NCBI GenBank assembly: GCA_012730095.1
Contig: JAAYBO010000194.1
Coordinates: 1-45,553 of the forward strand
Origin: Clostridiaceae bacterium
Lineage (GTDB): Bacteria > Bacillota > Clostridia > DSM-8532
DNA length: 45,553 nucleotides
Reading direction: 5' to 3'
The position numbers were made by a program, and so were the translations under genes. Positions 5,354-26,038 of this stretch are shown here, in pieces. The notes below the pieces were generated by a model, which saw only the letters and a program-made list of their open reading frames with translations, had not been told where the DNA came from and did not search any database. How positions within the stretch are numbered: position 1 is the first letter of the stretch; each line of letters begins with the position of its first letter.

Positions 5354-5881
5354 ATGTTAAAAATTTTTAGTGCTATTGATAAGCTTAAGCCCGCATATGA
5401 TATGATTTATAAGATTGTTCTTTTTATATGCAAGATATTATTAATTGCGGACATTGCCATTACAACTATGTCGGTTGCCGGGAGATATATTCCTTTCATT
5501 CCCGATCCTGCCTGGAGCGAGGAGATCGTATTGACGCTAATGGCCTATATGGCGGTACTTTCCGCGGCGCTTGCAATTCGGCGTAATGCCCATATCCGCA
5601 TGACCGCGTTTGATCGTTTTCTTCCGAAAAAATTAGTTGTTTTTTTGGATATTCTTGCTGATTTCGCCGTTTTCATTCTTGGGATTGTTATGATTACCGT
5701 GGGATGGAAATATGCGATGGTGTTAGGTTCGAAGGCCAGTTATGTCAGTATTCCAAGCTTATCCAAACGGTGGATGTACTTTCCGGTACCGTTAGCCGGG
5801 ATAGCGATGGTTATATTTGAATTGGAGTCTATCTATAATCACATTAAAAGTTTTTATAGAATGAAAGGTGGTACGGTATGA
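5354..5881 (+). CDS. dctQ: TRAP transporter small permease, DctQ family
   Basis: ATG at 5354 follows CAGGAGGG. About 175 aa with four hydrophobic helices. The stop overlaps the dctM start (ATGA at 5878). Confidence 0.85.
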   Translation: MLKIFSAIDKLKPAYDMIYKIVLFICKILLIADIAITTMSVAGRYIPFIPDPAWSEEIVLTLMAYMAVLSAALAIRRNAHIRMTAFDRFLPKKLVVFLDILADFAVFILGIVMITVGWKYAMVLGSKASYVSIPSLSKRWMYFPVPLAGIAMVIFELESIYNHIKSFYRMKGGTV

Positions 5882-7173
5882 GTCAAGAAGGAATTGCAAT
5901 ACTTATTTTAGTAGGAACCTTTCTGCTTATGGTAATACTCCGGTTCCAGATTTCATATGCCGTCGCGCTTGCGTCGTTTTTTACGCTCCTGTACCTTAGA
6001 CTGCCACTGACGACCATTTGTCAGCAAATGGTTAAAGGAATCAGTTCCTTCAGCCTCATGGCTGTGCCGTTTTTTATCACGATGGGGGTGCTGATGGGTT
6101 CAGGAGGTATTTCGGAAAAGCTCATTGACCTGGCAAACGCGTTGGTTGGCTGGATGCGCGGCGGACTTGCGATGGTTAACGTCGTCGATTCATTTTTCTT
6201 CGGCGGAATATCGGGATCCGCGGCGGCAGACACCGCGTCCCTCGGAAGCATTCTCATTCCGATAATGGTGAAGCAGGGTTATGATCCGGAATTTTCAACA
6301 GCCCTTACCATTGCCTCATCGGTAGAAGGGTTATTGGTTCCTCCGAGCCACAACATGGTAATATATTCAATGGCAGCCGGCGGAATATCGGTAGGAAGCC
6401 TTTTTCTGGCGGGGTACCTTCCGGGAGCGCTGCTTGCTGTATCATTGATGATTTCTGTGTATATAATCACATTGAGAAGAAAATACCCAAAAGGGGATAA
6501 ATTTAGTCTAATAAATTTGTTTAAACAGATCTTCAAATCGTTTTGGGCAATGGCTGCCGTTCTGATCGTTGTCGTAGGAGTTGTCGCCGGGGTTTTTACA
6601 GCTACCGAATCAGCTGCTATAGCGGTAATCTACAGTTTGATTGTAAGCTTATTTATTTACAGAGGCATTACATGGAAAGGCGTATGGAAGGCGCTTGAAG
6701 AATGTGTCGATACATTATCAATCGTACTCATTCTGATCGCAACTTCCAGTATTTTCGGATATTTACTCACACACCTCCATGTGCCTCAACACGCAGCTAA
6801 CGCATTGATTGGTATTTCGGACAACCCGATAGTTCTTGCGCTTCTGATAAACCTTATTTTACTGGTTCTCGGCTGTATTATGGACATGGCACCAATTATT
6901 CTGATTACAACGCCAATCCTGCTCCCGATTGCGTCTTCCATCGGCATCAGTCCTATTCAGTTCGGTATTATAGTTGTTCTTAACTGCGGCATCGGCTTAC
7001 TAACACCGCCTGTCGGAGCCGTACTTTTTATCGGATCGGCTGTCGGTAACGTTCCGATTGAACGCCTTGCGAAGGCGACCTTGCCGTTCTACCTTGCGAT
7101 GGTTGGTACACTTTTACTTGTAACGTTCATACCCGAAATCAGCATGTGGCTGCCATCTTTACTGATGAAATGA
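5878..7173 (+). CDS. dctM: TRAP transporter large permease, DctM family
   Basis: 431-aa polytopic membrane protein translationally coupled to dctQ. Size and composition are typical of DctM. Confidence 0.9.
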   Translation: MSQEGIAILILVGTFLLMVILRFQISYAVALASFFTLLYLRLPLTTICQQMVKGISSFSLMAVPFFITMGVLMGSGGISEKLIDLANALVGWMRGGLAMVNVVDSFFFGGISGSAAADTASLGSILIPIMVKQGYDPEFSTALTIASSVEGLLVPPSHNMVIYSMAAGGISVGSLFLAGYLPGALLAVSLMISVYIITLRRKYPKGDKFSLINLFKQIFKSFWAMAAVLIVVVGVVAGVFTATESAAIAVIYSLIVSLFIYRGITWKGVWKALEECVDTLSIVLILIATSSIFGYLLTHLHVPQHAANALIGISDNPIVLALLINLILLVLGCIMDMAPIILITTPILLPIASSIGISPIQFGIIVVLNCGIGLLTPPVGAVLFIGSAVGNVPIERLAKATLPFYLAMVGTLLLVTFIPEISMWLPSLLMK

Positions 7174-7181
7174 GGAAGTAT

Positions 7182-7655
7182 ATGAAATATCAGTTTACAA
7201 TTAATACAACCGCATCTGATCTCTGGCAGCTTTCGATGTATGGAATTTATGGCTCGATAGTTGGAGCCACTAACACGGCATTTACGGCTGCGATGATTTT
7301 GCTTACCGTCCGCTTTTTTTCAAATGTCCATATTATTCTTAAGTGCCTGCTTATATTAGCATGTTGTTTGTTTCCGATCATACAACCATTGCTTGTATAT
7401 ATACGGGCAAGAAAACAGGTTAAAAATGTTCCGAAAGATGTTAATTTGGGCTTCGACGATCAAGGGATACATGTTAACATCGGCGATCAGAAATCCGACA
7501 TTGACTGGAACAATGTGACAGGAATAACAAAAAAGCCGACATTGATGGTGATATATACGTCGGCACGGCATGGGTATGTTTTAACGAACAAAGTACTCGG
7601 AGATCAAAAGAAAGCTTTTTATAACTATATTTGCTCTAAATTAGAAAAGAAGTAG
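7182..7655 (+). CDS. YcxB-like membrane protein (two N-terminal TM helices plus a small C-terminal domain)
   Basis: ATG at 7182 follows GAGGAAG. Two TM helices are followed by a ~70-aa soluble domain (GIHVNIGDQKSDIDWNNV...VIYTSARHGYVL), a layout reminiscent of YcxB-type proteins. The family assignment is from memory only. Confidence 0.5.
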   Translation: MKYQFTINTTASDLWQLSMYGIYGSIVGATNTAFTAAMILLTVRFFSNVHIILKCLLILACCLFPIIQPLLVYIRARKQVKNVPKDVNLGFDDQGIHVNIGDQKSDIDWNNVTGITKKPTLMVIYTSARHGYVLTNKVLGDQKKAFYNYICSKLEKK

Positions 7656-7766: not shown

Positions 7767-10700
7767 TCACAGAAAGCATATCTGGTTGCTTTGATGCATA
7801 CCGTCAAGGCAGCCGTGGTTATCAAGTATTTCTATTACCGATTTGCTCACACCTGCCCTGATTTTTAAATCATCAACCGAAAGGAAAGGACCATTATCCC
7901 TTGCATCGGCAATACGGCGTGCTGCAGCTTCACCAAGACCCTGAAGCGTGTTCAGCGGCGGAAGGATTCCTTTATCCGTGATAATAAAACGTGAGGCATC
8001 CGATTTATACAAATCCACAGGTAGGCAATTGATACCGCGAGCATACATTTCATTTGCTACTTCCAAAATCGTAAGAATGTTTTTCTCCCTTTGCGTTGCT
8101 TCATTTCCCTTTCTTTCCAGTTCATCTATTGACCTTAATACCGCATCACGCCCTTTTGAAACAATATCCGCATCAAATTCATCGGCCCTGACAGTAAAAT
8201 ACGCGGAATAAAACGCATGCGGATAATACACCTTAAACCATGCTATACGAAAAGCCATCATTACATAAGCAGCAGCATGCGCTTTTGGAAACATATATTT
8301 AATCTTTTTGCAGGAATCTATATACCAATCAGGTATACCCGCTTTTTTCATAATTTCTTCGTACTCCTCAGTCAGCCCTTTTCCCTTCCTGACATCCTCC
8401 ATTATTTTAAACGCACTGAGCGGTTCAATTCCATTATTTATTAGTGATATCATAATATCATCACGAGTAGTAATAACACCCGACAGGGTTGCTATATTAT
8501 TTCTTACCAGTTCCTGGGCATTATTTGTCCATACGTCTGTTCCGTGCGATAACCCTGAAATTCTTACCAATTCCGAAAAAGTTGATGGCCTGGTTTCCAC
8601 AAGCATTTGACGTACAAATCTTGTGCCGAATTCAGGTATTCCAAAAGTCCCCACTTCACTTCCTATTTCTTCTGCCGTAACTCCCAATGGTTCTGTGCTT
8701 CTGAAAATCTCCATCGTATTTTTTTCTCCTATTGGTATCGTTTTCGGATTCACGTTAGTGATATCCTGAAGCATCCTAATCATAGTAGGATCGTCATGTC
8801 CCAGAATATCAAGCTTAAGGATTCGCCCACTAATCGCGTTATAGTCGAAATGGGTCGTGATTATATTTGAATTCACATCATCTGCAGGCCTTTGGACTGG
8901 TGAAAAATCATATATCTCCATATCATGGGGTACAATCATAACGCCTCCGGGATGCTGCCCGGTGGTACGCTTAATACCGGTACATCCTGTCACCAGACGG
9001 TTTATCTCCGCATTAGTAGCCATTATTCCCTTCTCGTCAAGGTAACCTTTCACAAAACCAAATGCCGTTTTTTCAGCTATCGTTGCTATCGTTCCGGCTC
9101 TGAACACATGCTGTTTTCCAAACAACTCTTCCGTATATTTATGAGCTTTTGATTGATACTCCCCTGAAAAATTCAGATCTATATCCGGTTCCTTATCACC
9201 GTCAAAGCCAAGGAAAGTTTCAAAAGGAATGTCATAGCCGTCTTTTGTAAGAAGCTGCCCGCATTTCGGGCATTTTTTATCCGGGAGATCAAAACCGCAT
9301 CCCGTATCAAGAAACTCGGAATAAAGGCAATTCTCACACCTGTAATGTGCCGGAAGCGAATTAACCTCGGTAATTCCTGTTAAATACGCGACAAACGAAG
9401 AGCCAACCGAACCGCGTGAGCCCACGAGATACCCGTCCTTGATTGATTTTGATACAAGCTTGCGCGCTATTATATACATAACCGAAAAGCCGTTCTTGAT
9501 AATAGAATTAAGTTCTTTGTCAAGTCTTTTTCGAACCAGTTCAGGAAGCGGGTTTCCATACAACGATGCCGCTTTCTCTTCCGAAACATTTTTTATATCC
9601 TCTTCGGCTCCGTCAATACAAGGAGGAAAAGTCCCCTCCGGTATAGGGGTGATATCGTCTATCCTGTCCGATATCATCTGCGTATTTTTTACCACGACCT
9701 CAAATGCGGTTTCTTCACCTAAATATGAGAACTCACTGAGCATTTCTTCGGTTGTCCTGAAAAAGAGCGGCGCCTGATTATCTGCGTCATCATAGCCCTG
9801 ACCGGCTTGAAGTATACGCCTGAATATTTCATCCTCAGGATCAAGAAAATGAACATCGCAGGTTGCTACAACAGGCTTGTTTATGACTCTGCCAATTTCA
9901 ACAATTTTACGGTTGTATTCTCTTAATTCTTCATACCCGGAAACCTCTCCTGAATCAACCATAAAACCGTTATTCTTGAGCGGCTGTATTTCAAGATAAT
10001 CATATAAATCGGCTGTCCTGATTATCTCTTCTTCACTTTTGCCTGCCGCAACAGCCCTGAAAACTTCACCGGATTCACACGCACTTCCTAAAATAAGACC
10101 TTCTCTGTACTTTGCAAGTACAGATTTCGGCACTCTTGGCCTCTTGTAAAAATAGTTCAGATGGCTTTCCGATATTAATCGGTATAGATTCTTAAGCCCC
10201 GTCTTGTTTTCCACAAGCAGTATCGCATGAAAGGTATCCGTATTTTTATAATCGATTTGACCGTTTTTTTCCTTTTTTTCTTCTCCAAGTAAATATATTT
10301 CAACTCCATAAATCAATTTAATTCCATGCTTTTTCGCCGCCGAGTGTGCATCCGGGAAAGCCTGAACTACACCGTGGTCGGTAATTGCGATAGCTTTATG
10401 CCCCCATTTTGCAGCCCTTTCGACAATAGCTTCAACCGGTGTTATTGCATCCATCTGGCTCATTTTTGTATGGAGATGAAGTTCTACCCTCTTTTGCCCG
10501 GCGTTGTCACTTCTTTCGGCAATACTTGTTCCCATAATGGCTTTCGCTCTAATAGTAAGCTCTTTACTAAATGTATCATACTGAGCATCTCCGTTAACCA
10601 ACAGCCAGTCTCCCGGGTGTATTCTTTCATTTAATGACACAAGCTGCCTTTCGGTTAAAAAACACTTAATTGTCAATGTATGTGTATAGTCTGTTATATC

Positions 10701-11504
10701 AAAAGAAAACAAAGTCTTTCCGTTTTTAAGGGAACGTGTTTCAATCCGGATAACCTTCCCCTTAACCGTTATCCGACCCGAATCAATTGTGACCTCGGAC
10801 ATCGGCACTGTTTCATCATTAAAAGCCTTTCCGTACATCACATTTGTATTTGAACCATTCTTTGATTTGTAAACTGATGTATTGTCCGATATTTTTTTGT
10901 TTCTATCTTTTTCGGCCTTTTCCGAATTGTATATGATTTTTTTCACCGTTTCCGCTTCTTTGATAACTTTATTCTTTATATAGCTGTTCCTGTCATTTTC
11001 ATCGAAAGGCGGATCGATAAATGATACACTAACGCTTTGGCCGAAACATGTTTTAAAAAATTTTTCCAATATTTTGTGACAATTACCCGCCTGTAAAATC
11101 ATACTGCCGTTTGTGGACAAATAAACATTTAAGTTTGTACCCTCAAGCACGAATCTCGCTTCTTCCAGAAAACAGGCATAATGTTCGGATTGTCCGGCCA
11201 TAATCCGGACAAAATCTTCTTTATAGCTATTAATAAAATCACAGTCTATCTTTTTCACTTCGAAATGCGGTATTACCAATACAGGCATATTAAAATAACT
11301 GCTGAGCGATTCTTCAAGAGTAAAAACTCTGTTAATTCGAACCACGTTTGGCAATTCGAGATGTATTTCCATCCTGCCGAATTTTTTATTGAACTTAACT
11401 TTTGAAATGAGAGCATTGTTAAAAGAATCGAAGAGTTCTTCATCAACAGTAATTTCATAAAAAACGTCCTTAAAAAGCCGCTTTTTATCTATCGTATTGT
11501 GCAT
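7767..11504 (-). CDS. polC: DNA polymerase III alpha subunit, PolC (Gram-positive) type, lacking the 3'-5' exonuclease insert
   Basis: PolC N-terminal domain and OB fold (VKGKVIRIETRSLKNGKTLFSFDITD). PHP motifs: ELHLHTKMSQMDA, ITDHG, GVEIY, FHAILL, GSACE, CDVHF. Zn finger HYRCENC...KCPKCG. Palm motifs PDIDLNFSGEYQ and LKLDILGHDDPT, plus KYMFPKAHAAAYV. Only about 20 aa sit where canonical PolC carries a ~190-aa DnaQ-like domain. Confidence 0.9.
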   Translation of the reverse strand: MHNTIDKKRLFKDVFYEITVDEELFDSFNNALISKVKFNKKFGRMEIHLELPNVVRINRVFTLEESLSSYFNMPVLVIPHFEVKKIDCDFINSYKEDFVRIMAGQSEHYACFLEEARFVLEGTNLNVYLSTNGSMILQAGNCHKILEKFFKTCFGQSVSVSFIDPPFDENDRNSYIKNKVIKEAETVKKIIYNSEKAEKDRNKKISDNTSVYKSKNGSNTNVMYGKAFNDETVPMSEVTIDSGRITVKGKVIRIETRSLKNGKTLFSFDITDYTHTLTIKCFLTERQLVSLNERIHPGDWLLVNGDAQYDTFSKELTIRAKAIMGTSIAERSDNAGQKRVELHLHTKMSQMDAITPVEAIVERAAKWGHKAIAITDHGVVQAFPDAHSAAKKHGIKLIYGVEIYLLGEEKKEKNGQIDYKNTDTFHAILLVENKTGLKNLYRLISESHLNYFYKRPRVPKSVLAKYREGLILGSACESGEVFRAVAAGKSEEEIIRTADLYDYLEIQPLKNNGFMVDSGEVSGYEELREYNRKIVEIGRVINKPVVATCDVHFLDPEDEIFRRILQAGQGYDDADNQAPLFFRTTEEMLSEFSYLGEETAFEVVVKNTQMISDRIDDITPIPEGTFPPCIDGAEEDIKNVSEEKAASLYGNPLPELVRKRLDKELNSIIKNGFSVMYIIARKLVSKSIKDGYLVGSRGSVGSSFVAYLTGITEVNSLPAHYRCENCLYSEFLDTGCGFDLPDKKCPKCGQLLTKDGYDIPFETFLGFDGDKEPDIDLNFSGEYQSKAHKYTEELFGKQHVFRAGTIATIAEKTAFGFVKGYLDEKGIMATNAEINRLVTGCTGIKRTTGQHPGGVMIVPHDMEIYDFSPVQRPADDVNSNIITTHFDYNAISGRILKLDILGHDDPTMIRMLQDITNVNPKTIPIGEKNTMEIFRSTEPLGVTAEEIGSEVGTFGIPEFGTRFVRQMLVETRPSTFSELVRISGLSHGTDVWTNNAQELVRNNIATLSGVITTRDDIMISLINNGIEPLSAFKIMEDVRKGKGLTEEYEEIMKKAGIPDWYIDSCKKIKYMFPKAHAAAYVMMAFRIAWFKVYYPHAFYSAYFTVRADEFDADIVSKGRDAVLRSIDELERKGNEATQREKNILTILEVANEMYARGINCLPVDLYKSDASRFIITDKGILPPLNTLQGLGEAAARRIADARDNGPFLSVDDLKIRAGVSKSVIEILDNHGCLDGMHQSNQICFL

Positions 11505-11712: not shown

Positions 11713-12219
11713 ATGCAGCGTAAAAAAACTGTCATATCCCTTGAAAAGCTTAATATAATCCGGCGTATACTCCGTCGTAAAGGAACAATAAACTTTCCCC
11801 TTTATCCCGGCCAGCTTCATATTCTGGAATTTGTCAAAACGTACAGCGGCTGTACACAGTCGGAGGTTGCTCAAAATTTACTTATTACACCTGCTTCCGT
11901 AGCTTTATCCACAAAGAGAATGGAAAAATCGGGCTTACTCAAAAAACAGCCGGATGATAAGAATTTGAGGTGCAAGAGGCTGTTTATAACCAAAAAGGGT
12001 GAACAATTATCATTACACTGCAGAAAAGTATTTGATGAGATAGATAATGCAATGCTTGAAGGTTTTTCGGAAGAAGAACTGGAAACTTTTAATAATTTTA
12101 TTGATAGATTTTTAGCAAACCTTACTAAAAAATACTCTTTGGATGTGGAAGATATGGACTTTTTCTCGTTATATGCCATGAGCAACATGATCAAATTCAA
12201 TAGAAAGAGGAAATCTTAA
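11713..12219 (+). CDS. MarR-family transcriptional regulator
   Basis: 168 aa. Winged-HTH region LHILEFVKTYSGCTQSEVAQNLLITPASVALSTKRMEKSGLLKKQPDDKNLRCKRLFITKKG. Abuts the ABC genes directly. Confidence 0.85.
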   Translation: MQRKKTVISLEKLNIIRRILRRKGTINFPLYPGQLHILEFVKTYSGCTQSEVAQNLLITPASVALSTKRMEKSGLLKKQPDDKNLRCKRLFITKKGEQLSLHCRKVFDEIDNAMLEGFSEEELETFNNFIDRFLANLTKKYSLDVEDMDFFSLYAMSNMIKFNRKRKS

Positions 12220-13959
12220 ATGATTAGAAAACTGTTTCCTTATATCGGAAAATATAAAATATATGCAATCCTCGCTCCCATTGCAGTTATCGTTGAAGTA
12301 TTTCTTGAAGTAAACATACCGCGTATAATGGCAAAAATAGTCGATATCGGAATAGCAAACCGTAATTTGGATTATATTCTCAAAATGGGCGCTATGATGA
12401 TTATAATGGCTCTTGCTTCACTTATCCTCGGAGCCCTTGCCGCCCGATTTGCTTCGGTTGCAAGCAGCGGTTTTGCAAAGGAAATACGAAGAAACATGTT
12501 TTACAAAATTCAGGATTATTCTTTTGCCAATATGGATAAATTTCCTACATCATCTCTGATAACAAGGCTTACGACCGACGTAACAAATACCCAAATGACT
12601 TTTATGATGATGATCCGCATGATGATTAGAGCACCTATCATGTTAATTATGGCAACATTTATGGCAGTGTCGATAAATGCAAGATTATCTTTAGTTTTTA
12701 TGTTTGCGATACCTTTTATGGCTATAGCATTGTATTTCATTGCAACAAGAGCTTACCCGAAATTCAGGGCGATGTTCAAAAAATTGGACCGGATGAATGC
12801 CGTTATTCAGGAAAACCTTATTGGGATACGTGTTGTGAAGGCTTTTGTAAGAGGCGAATATGAAGAGGAAAAATTTAAGGATATTGCCGATCAGGTACGC
12901 GAAACTCAATTGCGTGCCGAACGTACTGTGATATGGAATATGCCTATCATGCAATTTGCGATGTATGGCTGTATGCTCGCAATTTCCTGGTTCGGAGGGA
13001 ATTTAATCATATCCGGAAATATGTTAGAAGGCGAATTAATGGGGTTTATCAGTTATGTAACCCAAATACTTATGTCTCTTATGATGATTTCAATGGTTTT
13101 CGTAATGTTAGTTATTTCAAGAGCTTCTGTATCACGTATAGTCGAAGTTATGGACGAAAAACCGGACATAACGGAAAAACCGGATCCGGAGGTATTGTTA
13201 GAAGATGGGTCGATAAGATTTGAAAATGTTTCATTCGGTTATGGGGGACCTGACGGTAATAAAGTCCTTGAAAACATAAACTTAAATATAAAATCCGGCG
13301 AAGTCGCAGGCATTATCGGCGGGACAGGCTCGGCAAAAACCACCCTCGTCCAGTTAATTCCAAGGCTTTATGACGTTATTGACGGAAGGGTTTTCGTGTC
13401 TGGCCGTGATGTAAGGGATTATTCTTTAAAAACACTACGAAATGCCGTTGCGATGGTTCTGCAAAAGAACGTGCTTTTTTCCGGAACAATAAAGGAAAAT
13501 TTGAAATGGGGAAACGAAAATGCTTCGGATGAAGAGATTATAGAGGCTTGTAAAGCAGCCCAGGCTCATGATTTTATCATGTCTTTCCCGAACGGTTATG
13601 ATACGGTGCTCGGGCAGGGCGGAGTGAACGTATCCGGCGGACAAAAGCAGCGCCTTTGCATAGCGAGGGCTCTTTTGAAAAAACCGAAAATAATAATACT
13701 TGATGACAGTACAAGCGCAGTGGATACCGTTACCGATGCTAAAATCCGCGAGGCTCTGAAAAAAAACCTTGCAGGAACTACTGTAATCATTATCGCCCAA
13801 AGAATCGCATCTGTTATTGATGCGGACAAAATTATTGTAATGGACGACGGAAAGATCAATGCGATTGGGTCGCATAAAAACCTTATTGAAACAAATCCGA
13901 TTTACAGAGAAGTATATGAATCGCAGCAGGAAGGAGTTGTTGAAAATGCCGGGGCCTAA
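12220..13959 (+). CDS. ABC exporter, fused permease/ATPase (half of a heterodimeric multidrug-type exporter)
   Basis: Six-helix TMD followed by an NBD with Walker A GGTGSAKTT, signature VSGGQKQR and Walker B IIILDDSTSAVD. Confidence 0.9.
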   Translation: MIRKLFPYIGKYKIYAILAPIAVIVEVFLEVNIPRIMAKIVDIGIANRNLDYILKMGAMMIIMALASLILGALAARFASVASSGFAKEIRRNMFYKIQDYSFANMDKFPTSSLITRLTTDVTNTQMTFMMMIRMMIRAPIMLIMATFMAVSINARLSLVFMFAIPFMAIALYFIATRAYPKFRAMFKKLDRMNAVIQENLIGIRVVKAFVRGEYEEEKFKDIADQVRETQLRAERTVIWNMPIMQFAMYGCMLAISWFGGNLIISGNMLEGELMGFISYVTQILMSLMMISMVFVMLVISRASVSRIVEVMDEKPDITEKPDPEVLLEDGSIRFENVSFGYGGPDGNKVLENINLNIKSGEVAGIIGGTGSAKTTLVQLIPRLYDVIDGRVFVSGRDVRDYSLKTLRNAVAMVLQKNVLFSGTIKENLKWGNENASDEEIIEACKAAQAHDFIMSFPNGYDTVLGQGGVNVSGGQKQRLCIARALLKKPKIIILDDSTSAVDTVTDAKIREALKKNLAGTTVIIIAQRIASVIDADKIIVMDDGKINAIGSHKNLIETNPIYREVYESQQEGVVENAGA

Positions 13960-15832
13960 ACATGCAATACGAAACATCAAGCCTAAAAACGCACTTAAAA
14001 CAATAAAACGGATAATCTCATACATGAAGCCCTACCGCGCTCATCTGATACTTGTTATCGTATGTGTATTAATCAGTGTCGCATCCAATATTGCGGCGAC
14101 ATATTTTTTAAAACCATTATTCAACCGGTATATAATTCCGTTTATCGGCCAGCAAAACCCCAATTTGTCGGAGTTTATCCGAATGATTCTGATAATGGGC
14201 ACCATATATGTAATTGGAGTTCTCGCGACATACGGTTACAACCGCCTTATGGTCGCAGTAACTACAGGCACTTTATACAGAATCCGGACCGAACTTTTTT
14301 CTCATATGCAGACACTGCCGATACGCTATTTTGATACGAATACGCACGGCGAATTAATGAGCAGATATACAAATGACACCGATGCACTTCGTAATATGCT
14401 CTCCCAGAGTTTTGTCCACGTTTTTCAGTCAATGCTTACAATAAGCGGAGTTTTTACGGCAATGCTGTTATTAAGCCCGCTCCTTACAGTTATTGTCGTA
14501 TTAATGCTTTTTGTTATGATAATTATTGTTAAAAAGTTGGGTGCAAAAAGAGGTAAATATTTCAGGGAACGGCAAATGGCTGTCGGAAAGGTTAACGGAT
14601 ATATCGAGGAACTTATTGAAGGGCAGAAAGTTGTTAAGGTTTTTTGTCATGAAAATAAGGTAAAGGCAGACTTTGACAAGCTTAACGGGGAATTGTTCGA
14701 AGCTGCGAAACAAGCAAATACTTTCGCAAGCATGCTAAGGCCTATTATGGGTAATCTATCATATATACATTATTCGATTACCGCAATAGCAGGCGCGGTA
14801 ATGTCAATTACGATGGGGCTTGACATAGGTTCTCTTGCATCGTTCCTTCAATATACAAGATCATTTTCCCAGCCTGTGACAATGATGAGTGAGCAGTTTA
14901 ACTCAATACTTATGGCTTTGGCCGGTGCTGAGCGCATATTTGACATGCTTGATCAGGAACCGGAAACAGACGAAGGGTTTGTAACATTGGTAAACGCGGA
15001 AAAAAATGAAAAAGGTGAAATACGCGAATCCGCACAGAGAACGGGGCTTTGGGCGTGGAAGATCCCTGAAGGCGGTGGCGTCGTAGCATATAAAGAGGTA
15101 AAAGGTGATATTAGGTTTTCAAATGTTGTTTTCGGATATGAGAAAAACAAGACGGTGCTATCAGGGATAACACTGTATGCAAAGCCGGGACAGAAAATTG
15201 CGTTTGTCGGTTCCACCGGTGCCGGTAAAACAACAGTTACAAATCTGATAAATCGTTTTTACGATGTGCCCGACGGCGCAATACTGTATGACGGTATACC
15301 TATAAATAATATTAAAAAGCAGGATTTACGCCGCTCATTGTCGATGGTGTTGCAGGATACACATCTGTTTACCGGAACTGTAATGGAGAATATACGATAC
15401 GGAAGACTGGATGCAACCGACGAAGAAGTTATTGAAGCTGCTAAATTAGCTAATGCCGATTCATTCATAAGGCACCTGCCGCAAGGCTATAACACGCTTC
15501 TTACTGCGGATGGCATGAATTTAAGTCAGGGTCAAAGGCAGCTGCTGGCCATAGCCCGTGCGGCCGTCGCCGATCCTCCGGTCCTTATTCTTGACGAGGC
15601 AACAAGTTCGATAGACACACGAACAGAGGCTTTGATTGAAAAGGGTATGGACAAACTCATGGAAGGAAGAACGGTATTTGTTATAGCGCACCGGCTGTCA
15701 ACCGTACGCAATTCGAACGCGATAATTGTCCTTGAAAACGGCTCAATTGTTGAACGCGGTGATCATGAGAATCTTATAAGACAAGGCGGCAGGTATTATC
15801 AATTGTACACCGGCCTGCTTGAATTGGCTTAA
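13946..15832 (+). CDS. ABC exporter, fused permease/ATPase (second half of the heterodimer)
   Basis: The track ORF starts at 13859, but the ATG at 13946 (MPGPKH...) follows GAAGGAG and overlaps the upstream stop by 14 nt. Walker A GSTGAGKTT, signature LSQGQRQ, Walker B VLILDEATSSID. Confidence 0.9.
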   Translation: MPGPKHAIRNIKPKNALKTIKRIISYMKPYRAHLILVIVCVLISVASNIAATYFLKPLFNRYIIPFIGQQNPNLSEFIRMILIMGTIYVIGVLATYGYNRLMVAVTTGTLYRIRTELFSHMQTLPIRYFDTNTHGELMSRYTNDTDALRNMLSQSFVHVFQSMLTISGVFTAMLLLSPLLTVIVVLMLFVMIIIVKKLGAKRGKYFRERQMAVGKVNGYIEELIEGQKVVKVFCHENKVKADFDKLNGELFEAAKQANTFASMLRPIMGNLSYIHYSITAIAGAVMSITMGLDIGSLASFLQYTRSFSQPVTMMSEQFNSILMALAGAERIFDMLDQEPETDEGFVTLVNAEKNEKGEIRESAQRTGLWAWKIPEGGGVVAYKEVKGDIRFSNVVFGYEKNKTVLSGITLYAKPGQKIAFVGSTGAGKTTVTNLINRFYDVPDGAILYDGIPINNIKKQDLRRSLSMVLQDTHLFTGTVMENIRYGRLDATDEEVIEAAKLANADSFIRHLPQGYNTLLTADGMNLSQGQRQLLAIARAAVADPPVLILDEATSSIDTRTEALIEKGMDKLMEGRTVFVIAHRLSTVRNSNAIIVLENGSIVERGDHENLIRQGGRYYQLYTGLLELA

Positions 15833-15893: not shown

Positions 15894-16442
15894 CTAATTA
15901 ATTATGCCCAGTTCGCCAAACGGAAACAGCCGGAAAACAACCCTGCCTTCCACCCTGCTTGTCGAAACCGGGCCGAATGTTCTGCTGTCCTTGCTTTCAC
16001 CGGGTAATCGGTTATCCCCTAAAACATAAATATGGCCTTGAGGAACCGTCAGATCGTTATGGATGCTCGAAAACGGACCCATTGCAACCCCGCCTGTATA
16101 ATCTTCATTAAGCTTATTTCCGTTAACAAGTACATACCCGTCCTTTATCGCGATATGCTGGCCACCTGTAGCAATAATTCTTTTTATCGCATATGTTTTT
16201 TTGTCGTCAAGGTATTCCGGGATTTTTATTACCACTACATCCCCGTTTTTCAACGTTCCAAACCTCTGGGTCAGTTTCTCGATTAGCAGTATCGTGTTGT
16301 TTTTAAAAGTCGGCAGCATTGAATCGCCTTTGACGAGGGTAAACTGGGCTATATAAGTTACGACAAAAAAAGTAATTATGATGGCCGGCGCAATTTGCGC
16401 CAGCCAGCGTATTATTCCTTTTGCAACCGGACTTTTGAACAT
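15894..16442 (-). CDS. lepB: Signal peptidase I
   Basis: N-terminal TM anchor, catalytic Ser box GDSMLPT, Lys box AIKRIIA, and GDNRLPGESKDSR. The start overlaps the aspS stop (ATGA at 16441-16444). Confidence 0.9.
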   Translation of the reverse strand: MFKSPVAKGIIRWLAQIAPAIIITFFVVTYIAQFTLVKGDSMLPTFKNNTILLIEKLTQRFGTLKNGDVVVIKIPEYLDDKKTYAIKRIIATGGQHIAIKDGYVLVNGNKLNEDYTGGVAMGPFSSIHNDLTVPQGHIYVLGDNRLPGESKDSRTFGPVSTSRVEGRVVFRLFPFGELGIIN

Positions 16443-18229
16443 CAGTCTGCCTCCAGCGTTCGTATATGAAGTTCTCTCAATTGCTTAATCTCAACACTGT
16501 CCGGTGCTCCGGTCATCAGGCATGAAGCGTTTTGGACTTTCGGAAATGCGATTACATCCCTAATCGAATTCCTGTTTGCCATCAGCATTATAAGCCTGTC
16601 AAGGCCAAAAGCCAAACCGCCGTGCGGAGGCGTCCCATATTTAAACGCTTCAAGCAGAAAACCGAACCGTTTTTGGGCTTCTTCTTCAGGAAGACCGATA
16701 ATTGAAAACATTTTTTTCTGAAGCTCCTGATCATGTATCCTTATACTCCCGCCGCCAATCTCCACACCATTTAAAACTATATCGTAAGCTTTGGCTCGAA
16801 CCCTTTTAGGTTCCGAATCCAATAAACCAATGTCTTCATCCATTGGCGAAGTAAACGGATGGTGTTTTGCAACCCATCTTTTTTCCTCGTCGTCATATTC
16901 TAACAGTGGAAATTCAGTTACCCAGAGTAAATTAATTTTGCTGTCATCAATCAAATTCAATTTTGCCGCAATTTCCATGCGCAAATGGCTTAGGGCGTCA
17001 AAAACTATTTCATCGTCATCCGCTATAAAGCAGATCAGATCTCCCGGTTCGGCTTTCATACGATTTATAATCTGACTAATCTCATCTTCGCTCATAAATT
17101 TGGTTATAGCTGATTTCAAGCCGTTTTCCTCCACGGCAATCCAGGCCATTCCCTTTGCTCCGTATAATTTTGCAAATTCTATAAGCGCATCTATTTCCCT
17201 GCGCGCAAATTTGAAGCCGCAGCCTTTGGCATTGATTGCCCTCACGCTTCCGCCCTTTGATACCGCATCGGAAAATACCTTAAAGCCCGAGTTCTCAACA
17301 ATATCCGAAAGATTCACAAGCTCAAGACCAAAACGGGTGTCCGGCTTATCGGTACCAAACCTGTCCATAGCTTCTTTATATGTCAGACGCATAAACGGTG
17401 TATCCAGTTTTATTCCCAGCACCTTATCGAATGCACGTTTTAAAAAACCCTCGTTTATTGCAATGACGTCATCAACATCAACAAATGACATTTCAAGGTC
17501 TATCTGCGTAAATTCCGGCTGTCTGTCGGAACGTAAATCCTCATCCCTGAAGCATCTGGCAATCTGAAAATACCGGTCGTAACCCGAAACCATCAGGATT
17601 TGCTTGAAAATCTGAGGGGATTGGGGCAGCGCATAGAATTTACCGGGGTGTACACGGCTTGGCACAAGATAATCCCTTGCTCCTTCCGGTGTGCTTTTCA
17701 TAAGAATCGGTGTTTCTATCTCCAAAAAGCCTTGTTCATCAAAATAGTCCCTTGCTATTTTTGTTACCTTATGTCGGAGCATTAAATTCTTTTGCATATC
17801 AGGCCGGCGCAGATCAAGAAACCTGTATTTTAACCTTACCGCTTCATTGGTTTCAACATTCTCTTCAATAAGCACCGGAGGTGTTGCGGCTTTGCTTAAA
17901 ATTCTGAGTTCTTTCGCGACAAGCTCCCATTTTCCGGTTTTTATAGAGGGATTTATCGTATCTTCGGAGCGGTTCACCAAAACACCCTTTATCGCAAGGA
18001 CATATTCGCTTCGAATTTGTTCTGCCTTAGCGTGAAGCGCGCTGTCGGTTTCAACATTGAAAACAACCTGTAAAACACCGCTTCTGTCTCTTAAATCTAT
18101 AAAAATAACCCCGCCAAGATCCCTTCTTTTATGTGCCCAACCCATCACAACAACTTCCCTGCCGATATCTTCCGACGTAACCTCGGCACAGCGGTGGGTT
18201 CTTTTCATTCCTTTAATGTTTTCAGCCAT
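16442..18229 (-). CDS. aspS: Aspartate--tRNA ligase
   Basis: 595 aa. Class IIb motifs FYALPQSPQ, RCFRDEDLRSDRQPEFTQID and GGLAFGLDR. Bacterial-type insertion domain present. Confidence 0.95.
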   Translation of the reverse strand: MAENIKGMKRTHRCAEVTSEDIGREVVVMGWAHKRRDLGGVIFIDLRDRSGVLQVVFNVETDSALHAKAEQIRSEYVLAIKGVLVNRSEDTINPSIKTGKWELVAKELRILSKAATPPVLIEENVETNEAVRLKYRFLDLRRPDMQKNLMLRHKVTKIARDYFDEQGFLEIETPILMKSTPEGARDYLVPSRVHPGKFYALPQSPQIFKQILMVSGYDRYFQIARCFRDEDLRSDRQPEFTQIDLEMSFVDVDDVIAINEGFLKRAFDKVLGIKLDTPFMRLTYKEAMDRFGTDKPDTRFGLELVNLSDIVENSGFKVFSDAVSKGGSVRAINAKGCGFKFARREIDALIEFAKLYGAKGMAWIAVEENGLKSAITKFMSEDEISQIINRMKAEPGDLICFIADDDEIVFDALSHLRMEIAAKLNLIDDSKINLLWVTEFPLLEYDDEEKRWVAKHHPFTSPMDEDIGLLDSEPKRVRAKAYDIVLNGVEIGGGSIRIHDQELQKKMFSIIGLPEEEAQKRFGFLLEAFKYGTPPHGGLAFGLDRLIMLMANRNSIRDVIAFPKVQNASCLMTGAPDSVEIKQLRELHIRTLEAD

Positions 18230-18247
18230 ATACTATCTCTCCTTTTT

Positions 18248-19519
18248 TTATGAATTTACCTGCTTAAATTTTTTTAGCCTGTCTAACAGCGTATCTATGT
18301 TAATCATTCTTACTTCTCCGGAACTCATATCCTTTAGTTCAGCCTTTCCGCTTTCAACCTCGTCATCACCTATAACAACAACCAATCTTGCATTGAGCTT
18401 GTTCGCGTATTTCATCTGGGCTTTGACACTTCGACCCATTATATCCTTATGGCATGTAATCCCGTCGGAACGAAGTTTTAATGCCAGGTTTTCGGCAAAA
18501 AGGTTTGCTTTATATCCAATAACACCGATAAATATGTCGGGAGAAGACGGCAAAGGCACATCTATCCCCTGGCTGTCCATTTCAAGAAGCAGTCTTTCAA
18601 TACCAAGGGCAAAACCTATACCCGGTGTGGGACTGCCTCCGCAAGACTCAATAAGACCGTCATATCTGCCGCCGCCGCATACGGTTCCCTGCGAACCTAT
18701 GTTTTTTGAAACAAATTCAAAAACAGTACGAGTATAATAATCCAAACCGCGGACTATCTTTTTATCAATAGTAAACGGTATCCCCATTGCATACAGCTTT
18801 TCCTTTACCTTTTCAAAATGATCGGCGCAGTCACTGCAAATATAATCGAGCAAATAAGGGACATCCTTCAATTCATTTATGCATCCCTGTTCCTTACAGT
18901 CAAGAATCCTCAAAGGGTTCCTTTGATATCTGTCAATGCAGTCTTCGCAGAGCCGGTTCAGCCTCGGTTCGATAAAAGCTTTCAGCGTCTTGTTATAATC
19001 CGCTCGGCATGATGGGCAGCCTATGCTGTTCAGGTTCAGAGAAAGCTCCCTGATTCCAATCGACTCTAAAAACAGATATAAAAGGGATATCACCTCGACA
19101 TCCGCATCGGCTTCCGGAGATCCAAAAAGCTCAACTCCCAATTGGTGGAATTCACGATACCGGCCTTTTTGAACATTTTCATAACGGTATGCCGTAATAT
19201 TGTAAAAAAGCTTTACCGGCTGCGGCCATGAAGCCATTCCGTTTTCAATATAACTTCTGACAACACCCGCGGTTCCTTCAGGCCTTAAGGTAATACTCCT
19301 ACCACCTTTATCGTTAAAAGTATACATTTCTTTTTGGACAATATCCGTGGTATCACCAACCCCTCGCTGAAAAAGCTCCGTATGCTCGAAAAGCGGTATA
19401 CGGATCTCTTGGAATCCGAATCTGCTGCATATGTCACTGAATTTATCTTCCACGTAATGCCATCTGTGTATTTCATCAGGCAGAATATCCCTCGTTCCTT
19501 TAGGCGCTTTAATTAACAT
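18248..19519 (-). CDS. hisS: Histidine--tRNA ligase
   Basis: 423 aa. Starts KGTRDILP. Contains LRPEGTAGVVR, YRYENVQKGRYREFHQ, GGGRYDGL and a C-terminal anticodon-binding domain. Confidence 0.95.
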   Translation of the reverse strand: MLIKAPKGTRDILPDEIHRWHYVEDKFSDICSRFGFQEIRIPLFEHTELFQRGVGDTTDIVQKEMYTFNDKGGRSITLRPEGTAGVVRSYIENGMASWPQPVKLFYNITAYRYENVQKGRYREFHQLGVELFGSPEADADVEVISLLYLFLESIGIRELSLNLNSIGCPSCRADYNKTLKAFIEPRLNRLCEDCIDRYQRNPLRILDCKEQGCINELKDVPYLLDYICSDCADHFEKVKEKLYAMGIPFTIDKKIVRGLDYYTRTVFEFVSKNIGSQGTVCGGGRYDGLIESCGGSPTPGIGFALGIERLLLEMDSQGIDVPLPSSPDIFIGVIGYKANLFAENLALKLRSDGITCHKDIMGRSVKAQMKYANKLNARLVVVIGDDEVESGKAELKDMSSGEVRMINIDTLLDRLKKFKQVNS

Positions 19520-19576: not shown

Positions 19577-19840
19577 TAAAAAAACCTCTGTCCACAACAA
19601 AGGGACGAGAGGTATTCCCGCGGTACCACCCTATTGGAAGTTAAACTTCCGCTTTTACCATTAACGCAGGTCTTTACGTGCCGGACTACAACCCTTACGC
19701 AGCATTCATCCGGCCGGCTCCGGGGTGTTCTTTCACCGACAAGCTTCCAAAAAACGCTTTCAGTCACGGCGTTTTATCCCTGTTGGGCATAACCGGCTAC
19801 TTGTCCCCTTCCTTGCCTTTTCGGTATCTAACAATTATTG
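19577..19840 (-). promoter_or_regulatory. T-box riboswitch leader of hisS-aspS-lepB
   Basis: Minus-strand AATAGGGTGGTACCGCGGG (19617-19635) is the canonical T-box sequence. Its 3' half can instead pair into the terminator ACCTCTCG...CAGAGGT followed by seven T (19577-19613). A stem-III-like hairpin GGAAGT-tta-ACTTCC lies just upstream. Specifier codon not assigned. Confidence 0.85.
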
Positions 19841-21557: not shown

Positions 21558-21643
21558 TGGTGCCGCTGGCCGGAGTCGAACCGGCACGTCCAGAGGACAC
21601 TTGATTTTGAGTCAAGCACGTCTGCCAATTCCATCACAGCGGC
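21558..21643 (-). tRNA. tRNA-Leu (anticodon CAA), CCA encoded
   Basis: Minus strand reads GCCGCTGTGATGGAATTGGCAGACGTGCTTGACTCAAAATCAAGTGTCCTCTGGACGTGCCGGTTCGACTCCGGCCAGCGGCACCA. It has a 7-bp acceptor stem, anticodon loop CTCAAAA, a long variable arm and a GGTTCGA T-loop. Confidence 0.95.
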
Positions 21644-22432: not shown

Positions 22433-22969
22433 CTATTTGCTCATGCGTGAAATTAATTCAATCTCACCTTTTCCCATATTCAACATTCTTGCAATCTCGG
22501 TACTGCCTACTCCCTCTTTGTACAGATTTAATACTTCACGCTTTTTGGCGTCAAATGAAATAATCTTTCCTTTCTTTAACTGAATCACTTCAGCATGATC
22601 ATCCTTGCTATTCTCTGTAATATCGGAAATTTCAGACACTGCGTCACTGCTTTTTTCTTTGAATTGATTAATATTTGAAACTTGTCCGTTAATGTTTTCA
22701 AAAAGATCGTTTTTTTCAGAGACAGCATTAATAACGGATTCAATTTCCTGCTGTTTTTCTTCCATTCTGTTAACAATATAGTCAGAAAAATTATTCAACT
22801 CGTTAATAAGCTGCTCAGCGTCTTCGAGCGCCTGCTGGAGTTCATACCTGCGCTCGTCAACTTCAAGCCGGTAATCCCGCGAATTTTTCCGCTCAATCAC
22901 AATCCAAACCATTGCTATACCGACTACCATTATCCCTATCAATATGATACAGACAAAAAAAGCCGTCAT
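22433..22969 (-). CDS. Membrane-anchored coiled-coil protein with C-terminal HTH-like motif
   Basis: ATG at 22969 follows AGAGGTG, whereas the track start at 22996 has no RBS. The protein has an N-terminal TM helix, a long charged helical segment, and the C-terminal sequence KREVLNLYKEGVGSTEIARMLNMGKGEIELISRM. Confidence 0.6.
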   Translation of the reverse strand: MTAFFVCIILIGIMVVGIAMVWIVIERKNSRDYRLEVDERRYELQQALEDAEQLINELNNFSDYIVNRMEEKQQEIESVINAVSEKNDLFENINGQVSNINQFKEKSSDAVSEISDITENSKDDHAEVIQLKKGKIISFDAKKREVLNLYKEGVGSTEIARMLNMGKGEIELISRMSK

Positions 22970-23053
22970 CTTTTGCACCTCTGTTAGTTTTATCATTAGT
23001 AAATGTTTTTTGCACCAATTCCCTGTTAAAGTTCATCTTCTGTATCGTTATAT

Positions 23054-23377
23054 TCATACTCGTATATCAATTGTTGTACCTGCTGTCTTTTTTTTATTAT
23101 CTTCGCGCTGCTGCAGTTTTCTTTCTTTGTCAGGTTTATTCTCTTTATCCTGCTGCTGCGATTGCCTTTTTTCATTTTGCTGCTTTTCGCGGATTGCCGT
23201 ATTATGTGTTTCTTCCCGGGAATTCACTTGCCGCGTATTGCTTTCAGATTGTTTCTCCGTCGTTTGAACCGCGTTCTGGTGCGACGCCTGGGTGCGCTGC
23301 TGTTCATTATTTTGTACACGCGACATTTCATTTACTCTTGGCATCATAATTTGCATGTCAATCGGCTTAATTGCCAT
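23054..23377 (-). CDS. Gln/Glu/Lys-rich low-complexity protein, unknown function
   Basis: ATG at 23377 (MAIKPIDMQIMMPRVNEMSRVQ...) follows GGGAAGTGG. The rest is a highly charged Q/E/K/R-rich tail. Confidence 0.55.
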   Translation of the reverse strand: MAIKPIDMQIMMPRVNEMSRVQNNEQQRTQASHQNAVQTTEKQSESNTRQVNSREETHNTAIREKQQNEKRQSQQQDKENKPDKERKLQQREDNKKKTAGTTIDIRV

Positions 23378-23435
23378 ATAACCACTTCCCAAAAGATTTT
23401 ACACATCAATAAAAAATTACTTTGCAATTTGTCTG

Positions 23436-25046
23436 TTACAGCGGACCAATCCGTACATCTACACCGTCTTTATAAAGAGTACAATGCTGCAGGGTTTCTT
23501 TTACATGCATATTAGCCGAGCCTATAGAAATTCTTGTTCCCGGATATAAATAATTCAAAACCTTTATACGTCCCTTTACTTCCTGCTGAAGCTTTTGCTC
23601 TAATTCCTCCAGTTCTTCTTTATACTGCGAAATACGACTGTCATAAAATATTTTTGATCGGACACTTTTATCCAGTATCTCCTTTTTTTCTTCCGTAAGC
23701 ATACCCGCCGCTTCCATTTTTCTGAGCAGTACAATAGCCTGGTTTGCTTTTTTCGAGTTTTCCTCCATTTTTATTAAATCTGTTCTTAAGAATTTATATC
23801 TTTCTCTCACATGCGGGTCAACACCTACTTCTATATTTGTGGTGGTAGCCATATAGCTTCCGATAACTTTGGCTTCAATTTCTCTGCCTACCCGTGCCAC
23901 CCCACCCACCAAAAGACCTTTGCGGCCGCCAAGTTCAAGACGATTCCCGCATTTTACATCCGAATGCATTATCGCTTCGGCTTTAATATCGTTACCAGCT
24001 TCAACACGGCTGTTTTCAATATATTTTGCAATGACATCACCGCCTGCCGAAAGAAGCCCTTTCCCGTTTCCTGTCATTCCCCTGCGTAAAATAATATTAC
24101 CTCCGGCTTTAATGGTTGCGGCTTCAACAACTCCAAAAACCTCAACATTCCCTCCTACCTCAACAACAAAACCCGAAAGAACATTCCCGCGTACCGAGAG
24201 GTTTCCTACAAAATTAATATTTCCCGTTGAATTATCTACGTCAGCAGGCACCTCATAGGTTGAAAAAACACTTAGTTTACCATCAATATACATAACCTGT
24301 CCATCGATTTCAGAATACAGGCTTAATCCGTCTTCACCACTGTAAACATTCCTTCCCCTGACCATTTTAGCAGGTTTACCGTCAATAGCCTTAAGCATCG
24401 TTCCAACAACATTTTTACCGTTAATTCCGGGGGTTGGCTGCGTTATTTCACAAAGCTTTTGTCCCTTATGGACATTCTCAATATAATCAAGATCTCTGTA
24501 ATTGACGGAGCCGTCTTCCATAATAATCGGTTTTCTGTCCTTATGTATATCTACAAGAAAGTGGATTTCTCCGTTTTTTCCGTTAATAGGCGCCATTCCT
24601 TCTGCAATAAGAATATTCTGATCATATATCGGGTTTTCAACAAGAGTATGAACAACATCCTCTTTTATTCCGAATATAATGCCGTTTTGCTTTAATTGGA
24701 AAGCAATTTCCTGAATTCCTGCAGGTTTACCCCCTCCCTCCGGAGGTTTTATTTTTATATAAGCTTTCATTTTATCCGGATTGGTTACTACTTCGACCAA
24801 TGCGTCAATTTTTTCTTCTTCCTGCTTATCTGCGATTTTAACTGGATTTCCAGTGGCTTTTTTTATAGTATCCGTTATTACGGCAGCATTAAAATTCCGG
24901 ATTTTTTTACGCCGGATTTCATTCATCACTTCCGCTTCTTCAACCGCTGCGCCAAAAATACGGTTAACGGTAAGGTAGACACCGTCGGCGCCGTAGGTTA
25001 ACTCGAAAGGTTTTTTTTCCTGTATCGTTTCATCGAAATTTTTCAT
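23436..25046 (-). CDS. FapA-family (DUF342) flagellar-assembly-associated protein
   Basis: N-terminal region with DKMKAYIKIKPPEGGGKP. Beta-helix repeats GNINFVGNLSVRGNVLSGFVVEVGGNVEVFGVVEAATIKAGGNIIL. C-terminal coiled coil. Sits directly after fliA. Confidence 0.8.
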   Translation of the reverse strand: MKNFDETIQEKKPFELTYGADGVYLTVNRIFGAAVEEAEVMNEIRRKKIRNFNAAVITDTIKKATGNPVKIADKQEEEKIDALVEVVTNPDKMKAYIKIKPPEGGGKPAGIQEIAFQLKQNGIIFGIKEDVVHTLVENPIYDQNILIAEGMAPINGKNGEIHFLVDIHKDRKPIIMEDGSVNYRDLDYIENVHKGQKLCEITQPTPGINGKNVVGTMLKAIDGKPAKMVRGRNVYSGEDGLSLYSEIDGQVMYIDGKLSVFSTYEVPADVDNSTGNINFVGNLSVRGNVLSGFVVEVGGNVEVFGVVEAATIKAGGNIILRRGMTGNGKGLLSAGGDVIAKYIENSRVEAGNDIKAEAIMHSDVKCGNRLELGGRKGLLVGGVARVGREIEAKVIGSYMATTTNIEVGVDPHVRERYKFLRTDLIKMEENSKKANQAIVLLRKMEAAGMLTEEKKEILDKSVRSKIFYDSRISQYKEELEELEQKLQQEVKGRIKVLNYLYPGTRISIGSANMHVKETLQHCTLYKDGVDVRIGPL

Positions 25047-25055
25047 TGCAACACC

Positions 25056-25832: not shown

Positions 25833-26010
25833 ATATATCCCCCATTCCGCTTTATTCCTGACAGCCTATTGTATGGCTTATCTTTTGTATATTCTTTTAA
25901 GTAAGCAGCATTTTTACCGGCATAAAACTTGTAAATTAATCGTCTAACATGCTGATTAATAACAAACCACGGAGGGTTATCGTTATATTTTATATGCTGC
26001 TTATATCTTT

Positions 26011-26038
26011 ATTGTATCGTAGACATTCCATATGTCAA
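26011..26038 (-). promoter_or_regulatory. Candidate sigma-A promoter (TTGACA-16-TACAAT) upstream of fliA
   Basis: On the minus strand, TTGACA at 26038-26033, a 16-nt spacer, and TACAAT at 26016-26011. This lies about 180 nt upstream of the fliA ATG, inside a 310-nt gap. Confidence 0.45.

Follow-up and report, generated by a model that had tools for sequence, protein, structure and literature searches.

Canonical PolC, the PolC-type DNA polymerase III alpha, carries a DnaQ-like DEDDh exonuclease domain (Exo) inserted in its PHP domain, and the family is known to include members without this insert (PMC3919608). In the survey of Timinskas, Balvociute, Timinskas and Venclovas (NAR 2014; PMC3919608), 6% of PolCs lacked Exo. 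All of these were from Clostridia or Negativicutes, except for one extra copy in Thermotogae, and in 12 clostridial or negativicute genomes the Exo-less enzyme was the sole PolC, present beside DnaE1. Here, we describe an Exo-less PolC encoded on a 45,553-nt stretch of DNA from a Clostridiaceae bacterium (contig JAAYBO010000194.1 of assembly GCA_012730095.1), hereafter the window. The protein is a member of this known class: its sequence is already public and annotated as PolC, its architecture is documented, and neither constitutes a discovery. A preliminary description of the window had asked whether the architecture had been characterised. It was described computationally in 2014 (PMC3919608), and no biochemical characterisation of an Exo-less PolC was found in the literature searched. 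We are confident that the gene is the organism's ordinary functional PolC replicase, an ortholog of full-length Acetivibrio PolC that has lost Exo and in which proofreading may fall to the PHP domain.

The Exo-less class is exemplified by Acidaminococcus fermentans YP_003399045.1, which has the N-terminal domain (NTD), OB fold, PHP, polymerase (Pol3) and helix-hairpin-helix (HhH) regions of PolC without the Exo insert, and the complete set of nine PHP metal ligands, HHDHEHCDH. The two Exo-less Acidaminococcus entries listed in the accessible part of the 2014 supplement have nine of nine ligands (PMC3919608). The window PolC shares the architecture, the ligand set and a clostridial host with this class; its C-terminal clamp motif is QICFL, versus QIELF in A. 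fermentans. A cultured member, Thermoclostridium stercorarium DSM 8532, has a PolC of 1243 aa (WP_015358375.1) that is 68% identical to the window protein, with a loop of identical length (25 residues) at the Exo site and the same linkage to hisS-aspS-lepB. The Exo-less PolCs of Negativicutes have a 14-residue loop and appear to stem from a deletion independent of that in the window lineage.

Engineered enzymes provide a second comparison. In the delta-N delta-Exo PolC of Geobacillus kaustophilus (Gka; 3F2B), Exo was cut at the same PHP loop, and residues 236-1243 of the window protein align with it contiguously, whereas the window protein aligns with full-length Enterococcus faecium PolC in two stretches. 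A delta-Exo construct of the Staphylococcus aureus enzyme is a fast polymerase, with a kpol of 330 s-1 (PMC3656037). Unlike the laboratory constructs, which contain an artificial GSGSG-type linker and no NTD, the window protein retains both its NTD and a conserved natural loop.

Two further groups of enzymes are relevant. Mycobacterium tuberculosis (Mtb) DnaE1 and Thermus Pol III alpha have the same nine-residue trinuclear site, HHDHEH[C/H]DH, and no DnaQ domain in the polypeptide. The PHP-adjacent loop is 29 residues long in Mtb and 18 in Taq (PMC5636811), compared with 25 in the window PolC when counted from Glu to His. These are DnaE-type enzymes, with a C-terminal OB fold and without the PolC NTD or Zn finger, and their exonuclease activity has been demonstrated, whereas that of the window PolC is predicted. 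Finally, the PolCs of the Acetivibrio sister clade share approximately 68-70% identity with the window protein in the common core, with the same intact PHP site in relatives. A DnaQ-like Exo is retained in the PolC of Acetivibrio (Clostridium) thermocellus, the enzyme in which the hypermutator substitution C669Y was found (Lanahan et al., bioRxiv 2021).

Domain composition of the window PolC

The polC open reading frame (ORF; Table 1) starts with ATG, preceded by the Shine-Dalgarno sequence AAAGGGG. Pfam domains occur in the PolC order, that is, DNA_pol3_a_NI, OB, PHP (residues 341-506), DNA_pol3_alpha, finger and HHH_6. The protein scored 1637.8 bits against the NCBIfam PolC equivalog NF001688 (cutoff 873) and 1460.9 bits against the PolC model TIGR01405 (cutoff 1043). 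The palm contains the D-x-D-x-N signature and third Asp of PolC-type enzymes, and the four-Cys Zn finger is also present; the Asn of this signature marks PolC, as DnaE has Asp at that position (PMC3919608). The palm residues D774, D776, N778 and D899 (DDND) were unchanged in 141 of 141 relatives. Alignment confirmed the earlier observation that all nine PHP ligands are present: H343, H345, D352, H377, E402, H426, C476, D550 and H552 read HHDHEHCDH, and they were invariant in 80 of 80 short-form and 61 of 61 full-length clostridial PolCs.

The C-terminus had been thought to depart from the canonical clamp-binding motif because the protein ends in NQICFL. This view was not upheld. QICFL fits the pattern Q-[LIVM]-x-[LFM]-[FL], and the variants QVCFL, QLCFF, QLCLF, QISLF and QLSLF occur among short and full-length relatives, such that the motif is common to both forms. 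Clamp-binding motifs listed in the accessible part of the 2014 supplement include QIELF, QITFF and QLSFF (PMC3919608).

The window PolC does not have the hallmark of canonical PolC, the DEDDh exonuclease inserted in PHP. Pfam matched PHP, OB and DNA_pol3_alpha but gave no match to RNase_T/DnaQ (PF00929) in the 1245-aa protein even at E ≤ 1. The match to NF001688 fell into two stretches, of which the C-terminal one paired residues 413-1243 with profile positions 603-1442; this offset of approximately 190 positions corresponds to the place of the Exo domain. In an alignment with 78 PolC loci of reference genomes, 69 of them full-length, the interval from E402 (GVE) to H426 (FHA) measured 25 residues in the window PolC. 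Among the 69, almost all had 212-221 residues there, and one frameshifted locus had 188. Further, a hidden Markov model (HMM) of Exo built from relatives had no match in a six-frame search of the 45-kb window (best E-value 0.43). The proposal that Exo is precisely absent is thus substantiated, and the replacing loop, initially placed at approximately 10230-10292, agrees with the loop delimited here at 10230-10298 (IYLLGEEKKEKNGQIDYKNTDTF).

A survey of relatives, suggested with the preliminary description, established that the short form is not confined to the window: the 25-residue junction was kept in approximately 95 related sequences, representing approximately 75 distinct 90%-identity clusters and sharing 57-100% identity. 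Within this clade, the loop follows the pattern E-x-Y-x-x-x-x-[ED]-x5-G-x-[IL]-D-Y-[KR]-N-x-x-T-[YF]-H. An AlphaFold (AF2) model of residues 330-625 had a pLDDT of 91, with approximately 90 in the loop, and the modelled PHP domain superposed on the engineered Gka delta-Exo structure (3F2C) with an rmsd of 1.9-2.0 Å over the whole domain. Because the S. aureus delta-Exo enzyme is fast and the engineered Gka structure agrees with the model, removal of Exo at the PHP loop is, by analogy, structurally and catalytically tolerated. The loop at the Exo insertion point corresponds to a loop of DnaE1 beside the PHP active site which, in Mtb DnaE1, lines a groove toward that site (PMC5636811). The 25-residue loop may be a counterpart of this groove-lining loop.

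Integrity of the gene

We considered whether the gap might reflect an assembly deletion or a decaying pseudogene. This explanation, which has nothing in its favour beyond being possible a priori, has practically no chance of being correct. An identical 1245-aa protein was found on 97 independently assembled contigs from four sources (ENA, JGI, NCBI and Logan; SPAdes- and MEGAHIT-style pipelines), and six loci read back against the window polC differed by 1 nt in 3735. The short-form junction was also present in three complete T. stercorarium genomes. Moreover, the frame is uninterrupted, the catalytic residues are all intact, and dN/dS was 0.075 relative to the ortholog L001 from the metagenome-assembled genome (MAG) DTU069, which is 87% identical. 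By these comparisons, the window PolC is a real and intact gene under purifying selection, which bears out the preliminary view that the remainder of the protein is intact and not that of a decaying pseudogene.

Within the short clade, the PHP domain showed no relaxation beyond that of other domains. A search for clade-specific substitutions yielded only four fixed differences (Q566, L1029, C1160 and G1218), with no consistent pattern across independent losses of Exo.

Distribution of Exo-less PolCs

The closest named relatives of the window PolC were from Clostridiales bacterium DTU069 (87% identity), a Ruminiclostridium sp. MAG and T. stercorarium (68%). The host most likely belongs to an uncultured lineage of clostridia within the Acetivibrio/Hungateiclostridium group, with Thermoclostridium as a relative. 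The short forms whose loop has 25 residues all fell into a single clade in 100 of 100 neighbour-joining bootstraps, with full-length PolCs from Acetivibrio, Ruminiclostridium and Pseudoclostridium as the sister group. Judging from this topology, Exo was lost only once in the window clade, through an ancient in-frame deletion in its common ancestor.

Other short forms had different affinities. L002, with a 23-residue loop, grouped with full-length Acetivibrio-type PolC in 200 of 200 replicates and never with the 25-residue-loop clade, and L003, with a 21-residue loop, was nested inside a full-length clade in 200 of 200. The loops of L005, L024 and the Megasphaera-type loci were 23, 26 and 14 residues long, respectively. 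Overall, Exo was deleted from PolC independently at least four times, and we interpret L002, L003 and the other short forms outside the 25-residue-loop clade as having arisen independently of it.

To place these forms in a wider sample, we classified PolC clusters at 50% identity, taking the nearest 141 with coverage of both PHP halves, as found using residues 236-1245 as the query. Exo was recognisable in 99 of the 141 (Glu-to-His offset of approximately 200-265 residues, with two above 400). A further 32 were Exo-less, with loops of 12-39 residues, and the other 10 had an insert of 71-299 residues that was not recognisable as DnaQ (P0277, P0285, P0295, P0303, P0328, P0330, P0350, P0359, P0368 and P0370). 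Seven of these ten were examined using Pfam, and none had a match to PF00929 at E ≤ 0.01. In P0330, the ExoI motif DIETTG has become HIGTTG, and DxE is missing altogether from P0277 and P0285. The ten inserts look like catalytically dead, decaying remnants of Exo, between the full-length and the cleanly deleted forms.

Candidate proofreading activities

Active PHP exonucleases have been recognised by the residue pattern HHDHEH[C/H]DH (PMC12926913), which is present in full in the window PolC. At ligand 8, the window PolC has Asp (D550) where the aligned PolCs of G. kaustophilus and E. faecium have Asn, a single change to which the reported lack of PHP exonuclease activity in Gka PolC has been attributed (PMC5636811). 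The preliminary description had given NVH at this position for B. subtilis PolC; the Asn was indeed seen, in the two PolCs just named. In C. thermocellum, the PolC substitution C669Y increased the mutation rate at least 30-fold with the DnaQ domain intact (bioRxiv 10.1101/2021.07.30.454558). Position mapping placed C669 at the Cys ligand of the PHP site, which is C476 in the window PolC. Based on these analogies, we give about even chances to proofreading by the PolC's own PHP domain, with its complete nine-residue trinuclear metal site. The earlier suggestion that a PHP-based proofreader is conceivable is thus a reasonable hypothesis, given Asp at ligand 8 and the C669Y mutator.

Several points weigh against a replicase that proofreads through PHP. 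The 61 full-length clostridial PolCs show the same invariance at all nine ligands, so retention of these residues is not specific to Exo loss and is no proof of exonuclease activity. No biochemical demonstration of a PolC PHP exonuclease was found in the literature searched, and the C669Y phenotype could arise from structural destabilisation rather than lost PHP catalysis. As to orthology, the PolC phylogeny is neighbour-joining only, and the possibility of a second polC was judged from the 45-kb window, the loci of relatives and the literature.

It is also possible, though we consider it less likely, that the window PolC is functional but has no intrinsic proofreading. The PHP domain would then have a structural or metal-binding role, and proofreading would be supplied in trans by the PHP domain of DnaE1 or by a stand-alone DnaQ-like protein; alternatively, DnaE1 would be the bulk replicase and PolC an auxiliary enzyme. 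The PHP domain of E. coli has a structural role only, and the clostridial ligands are kept with or without Exo, both of which agree with this proposal. In addition, Timinskas et al. suggest that DnaE1 may be the main replicase in bacteria having PolC and DnaE1 and point to Exo-less PolCs as fitting this view (PMC3919608), and in B. subtilis the PolC Exo domain proofreads DnaE3 in trans (PMC12926913). The stand-alone DEDD exonuclease gene found approximately 6 kb from short polC in Megasphaera-type loci counts on the same side. However, no DnaQ-like ORF occurs in the 45-kb window or in the ±10-kb loci of close relatives. Moreover, HHDHEHCDH is strictly kept, including the Asp at ligand 8, by which active PHP exonucleases differ from the inactive Gka enzyme, and mutation of a PHP ligand in the C. 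thermocellum PolC of the sister clade yields a strong mutator despite an intact DnaQ domain.

The idea that Exo was split off as a separate gene near polC was rejected for the window lineage, as nothing of this kind was present in the window or in the loci of close relatives; a DEDD exonuclease gene was seen only in Megasphaera-type loci. In two of these (L068 and L069), a stand-alone gene of approximately 340 aa lies approximately 6.5 kb downstream of the Exo-less polC on the opposite strand. Its product combines two repeats at the N-terminus (KFYAIS.GRKTGI...) with a DEDD exonuclease at the C-terminus (DIELTG), and it matched the PolC Exo HMM with E-values of approximately 1e-7 to 1e-8. In L066, the stand-alone exonuclease match lies approximately 518 aa into the reverse-strand frame.

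Genomic context and orthology

The window is judged to be chromosomal from its gene content, which includes hisS, aspS, lepB, a flagellar/chemotaxis cluster and transporters (Table 1). The hisS-aspS-lepB-polC linkage is kept in both subclades of the short form (T. stercorarium L088; L089, L090 and L091). A marR gene and two ABC exporter genes, in the opposite orientation, lie between lepB and polC in the window, L001 and L091. This cassette is absent from T. stercorarium (L088) and from the other subclade (L089 and L090), and in L089 polC directly follows lepB. In the nearest full-length relative, L004, polC occupies a dxr-rseP-ispG-polC-rimP-nusA-infB context. The stable linkage across the clade, set against the canonical context of L004, points to an ancient deletion and an ancient relocation, each since kept stably in the lineage.

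The preliminary description took the neighbourhood as a sign that the window gene is a second, specialised paralog. Under this proposal, the window PolC would have a non-proofreading role, and a canonical full-length polC would be located elsewhere at rimP-nusA-infB. The position of the window polC outside the context seen in L004 agrees with it, as do the extra copy of an Exo-less PolC in one Thermotogae genome of the 2014 survey and the coverage of only 45 kb of the source genome. Nevertheless, genomic context was rejected as a sign of paralogy, since most of the sampled full-length clostridial polC loci also have no rimP-nusA downstream, making neighbourhood a weak criterion. Further, in the short forms L005 and L024, polC occupies the orthologous slot immediately following dxr-rseP-ispG.

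Phylogeny and the database matches argue in the same direction. The short clade is sister to full-length Acetivibrio PolC, matching organismal relationships, and is no divergent outlier. The 120 best database matches included named full-length PolCs from Acetivibrio, Ruminiclostridium, Pseudoclostridium and Herbivorax; among these 120, there was no full-length PolC from Thermoclostridium, only its short one. The Exo-less enzyme was the only PolC in all 12 of the clostridial and negativicute genomes having one in the 2014 survey, and the dN/dS of 0.075 and the invariant catalytic residues fit an essential replicase. A paralog is therefore improbable, and the conserved linkage together with the branching of the clade as an Acetivibrio ortholog speaks instead for the lineage's ordinary PolC.

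Among gut and rumen 'Clostridia' MAGs (L006-L012, L015-L019, L021-L054 and others), full-length polC often had only rseP upstream and mostly no rimP-nusA-infB after it; the textbook polC context is true for only part of the Clostridia. On the TRAP-transporter side of polC, L081 (strain variant ERZ2647956, whose PolC is identical) is locally rearranged relative to window positions 5878-7655: the ycxB-like gene and dctM are missing from beside polC, and another small ORF is found in this place. The start of the second ABC exporter is probably further downstream than listed, as gene calls on identical loci give 628 aa versus 657. In a promoter/terminator scan, promoter-like sites around polC were no commoner than in shuffled controls, and no terminator-like match fell in the intergenic spacer that follows the polC stop codon.

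Table 1. Features of the window PolC and its genomic surroundings
Feature	Position (nt)	Strand	Details
polC, complete CDS	7767..11504	-	Exo-less PolC-type DNA polymerase III alpha; 1245 aa + stop codon
PolC-specific NTD	10800..11504	-	Residues 1-235; Pfam DNA_pol3_a_NI at 10-71, E=1.4e-8
OB fold	10500..10799	-	Residues 236-335; located before PHP, the PolC order; Pfam tRNA_anti-codon at 245-323
PHP, N-terminal part	10299..10499	-	Residues 336-402; ligands H343, H345, D352, H377, E402
Loop	10230..10298	-	Residues 403-425, IYLLGEEKKEKNGQIDYKNTDTF; site of the ~190-aa DnaQ-like exonuclease in canonical PolC
PHP, C-terminal part	9645..10229	-	Residues 426-620; ligands H426, C476, D550, H552
Polymerase core (palm, thumb, fingers)	8340..9644	-	Pfam DNA_pol3_alpha + finger
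Zn finger CENC/CPKC in polymerase core	9261-9338	-	CENC, residues 723-726; CPKC, residues 745-748; both CxxC pairs present
Palm catalytic residues D774, D776, N778	9168-9188	-	
Palm catalytic residue D899	8790-8813	-	
C-terminal region	7785..8339	-	Tandem HhH DNA-binding module; Pfam HHH_6 at 1157-1239
Predicted clamp-binding pentapeptide	7770..7784	-	QICFL, residues 1241-1245; assigned by motif fit
marR-ABC-ABC cassette	11713-15832	+	Between lepB and polC
ABC exporter ORFs	12220-13959 and 13859-15832	+	101-nt overlap as mechanically listed
hisS-aspS-lepB block	15894..19519	-	Conserved upstream partner of short polC; Pfam
T-box leader	19598-19822	-	Upstream of hisS-aspS-lepB; Rfam RF00230, 111 bits
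tRNA-Leu	21558-21643		
Flagellar/chemotaxis cluster	22433-36322	-	DUF6115, FapA, FliA/SigD-type sigma factor, CheA, CheB, PilZ/YcgR-like, FlhG, FlhF, FlhA
tRNA-Asn	40745-40820		

Discussion

The data are consistent with the following scheme for the window PolC as an ordinary replicase. An ancestral in-frame deletion removed the DnaQ-like exonuclease from the PHP loop, leaving the loop of invariant 25-residue length. What is needed for clamp-bound polymerisation was kept: the OB fold, the Zn finger, the palm D-x-D-x-N and third Asp, the fingers, the HhH module and the predicted clamp-binding motif. A co-resident DnaE1, whose presence is assumed from the literature on the class, would probably act as a backup with its own PHP proofreader. 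Clostridia usually carry three putative 'active' proofreaders (PMC12926913). Such a complement would make the DnaQ insert redundant and so explain why it was repeatedly deleted, or left to decay, in these lineages.

A broader proposal can be made by analogy, which we advance tentatively and rate at slightly under even chances: that clostridial PolCs with Asp at ligand 8 are PHP proofreaders, that the DnaQ insert is dispensable in them, and that the 25-residue loop is functional and not a scar.

Although the architecture itself was documented previously, three aspects are incremental additions. The first is the single origin of the length-invariant loop and, with it, the conserved hisS-aspS-lepB linkage in the clade. 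The second is the occurrence of at least four independent deletions, together with lineages that have decayed inserts. The third is the contrast of Asp versus Asn at ligand 8 between the natural protein and the engineered delta-Exo enzymes.

Bacteria with PolC and DnaE1, among them C. difficile, C. botulinum and cellulolytic clostridia of industrial use, divide replication and proofreading between their polymerases. Natural Exo-less PolCs are test cases for whether the PHP domain of PolC is a working exonuclease and whether DnaE1 carries fidelity or bulk synthesis, and the availability of a cultured thermophile with the same enzyme, T. stercorarium, makes the experiment feasible. The answer would bear on the engineering of mutator strains following the C669Y work in C. 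thermocellum. If the broader proposal is true, the four or more clean deletions, the 32 Exo-less clusters among 141 and the decayed inserts would form a series in which PolC is reverting to a presumed ancestral state of PHP-only proofreading.

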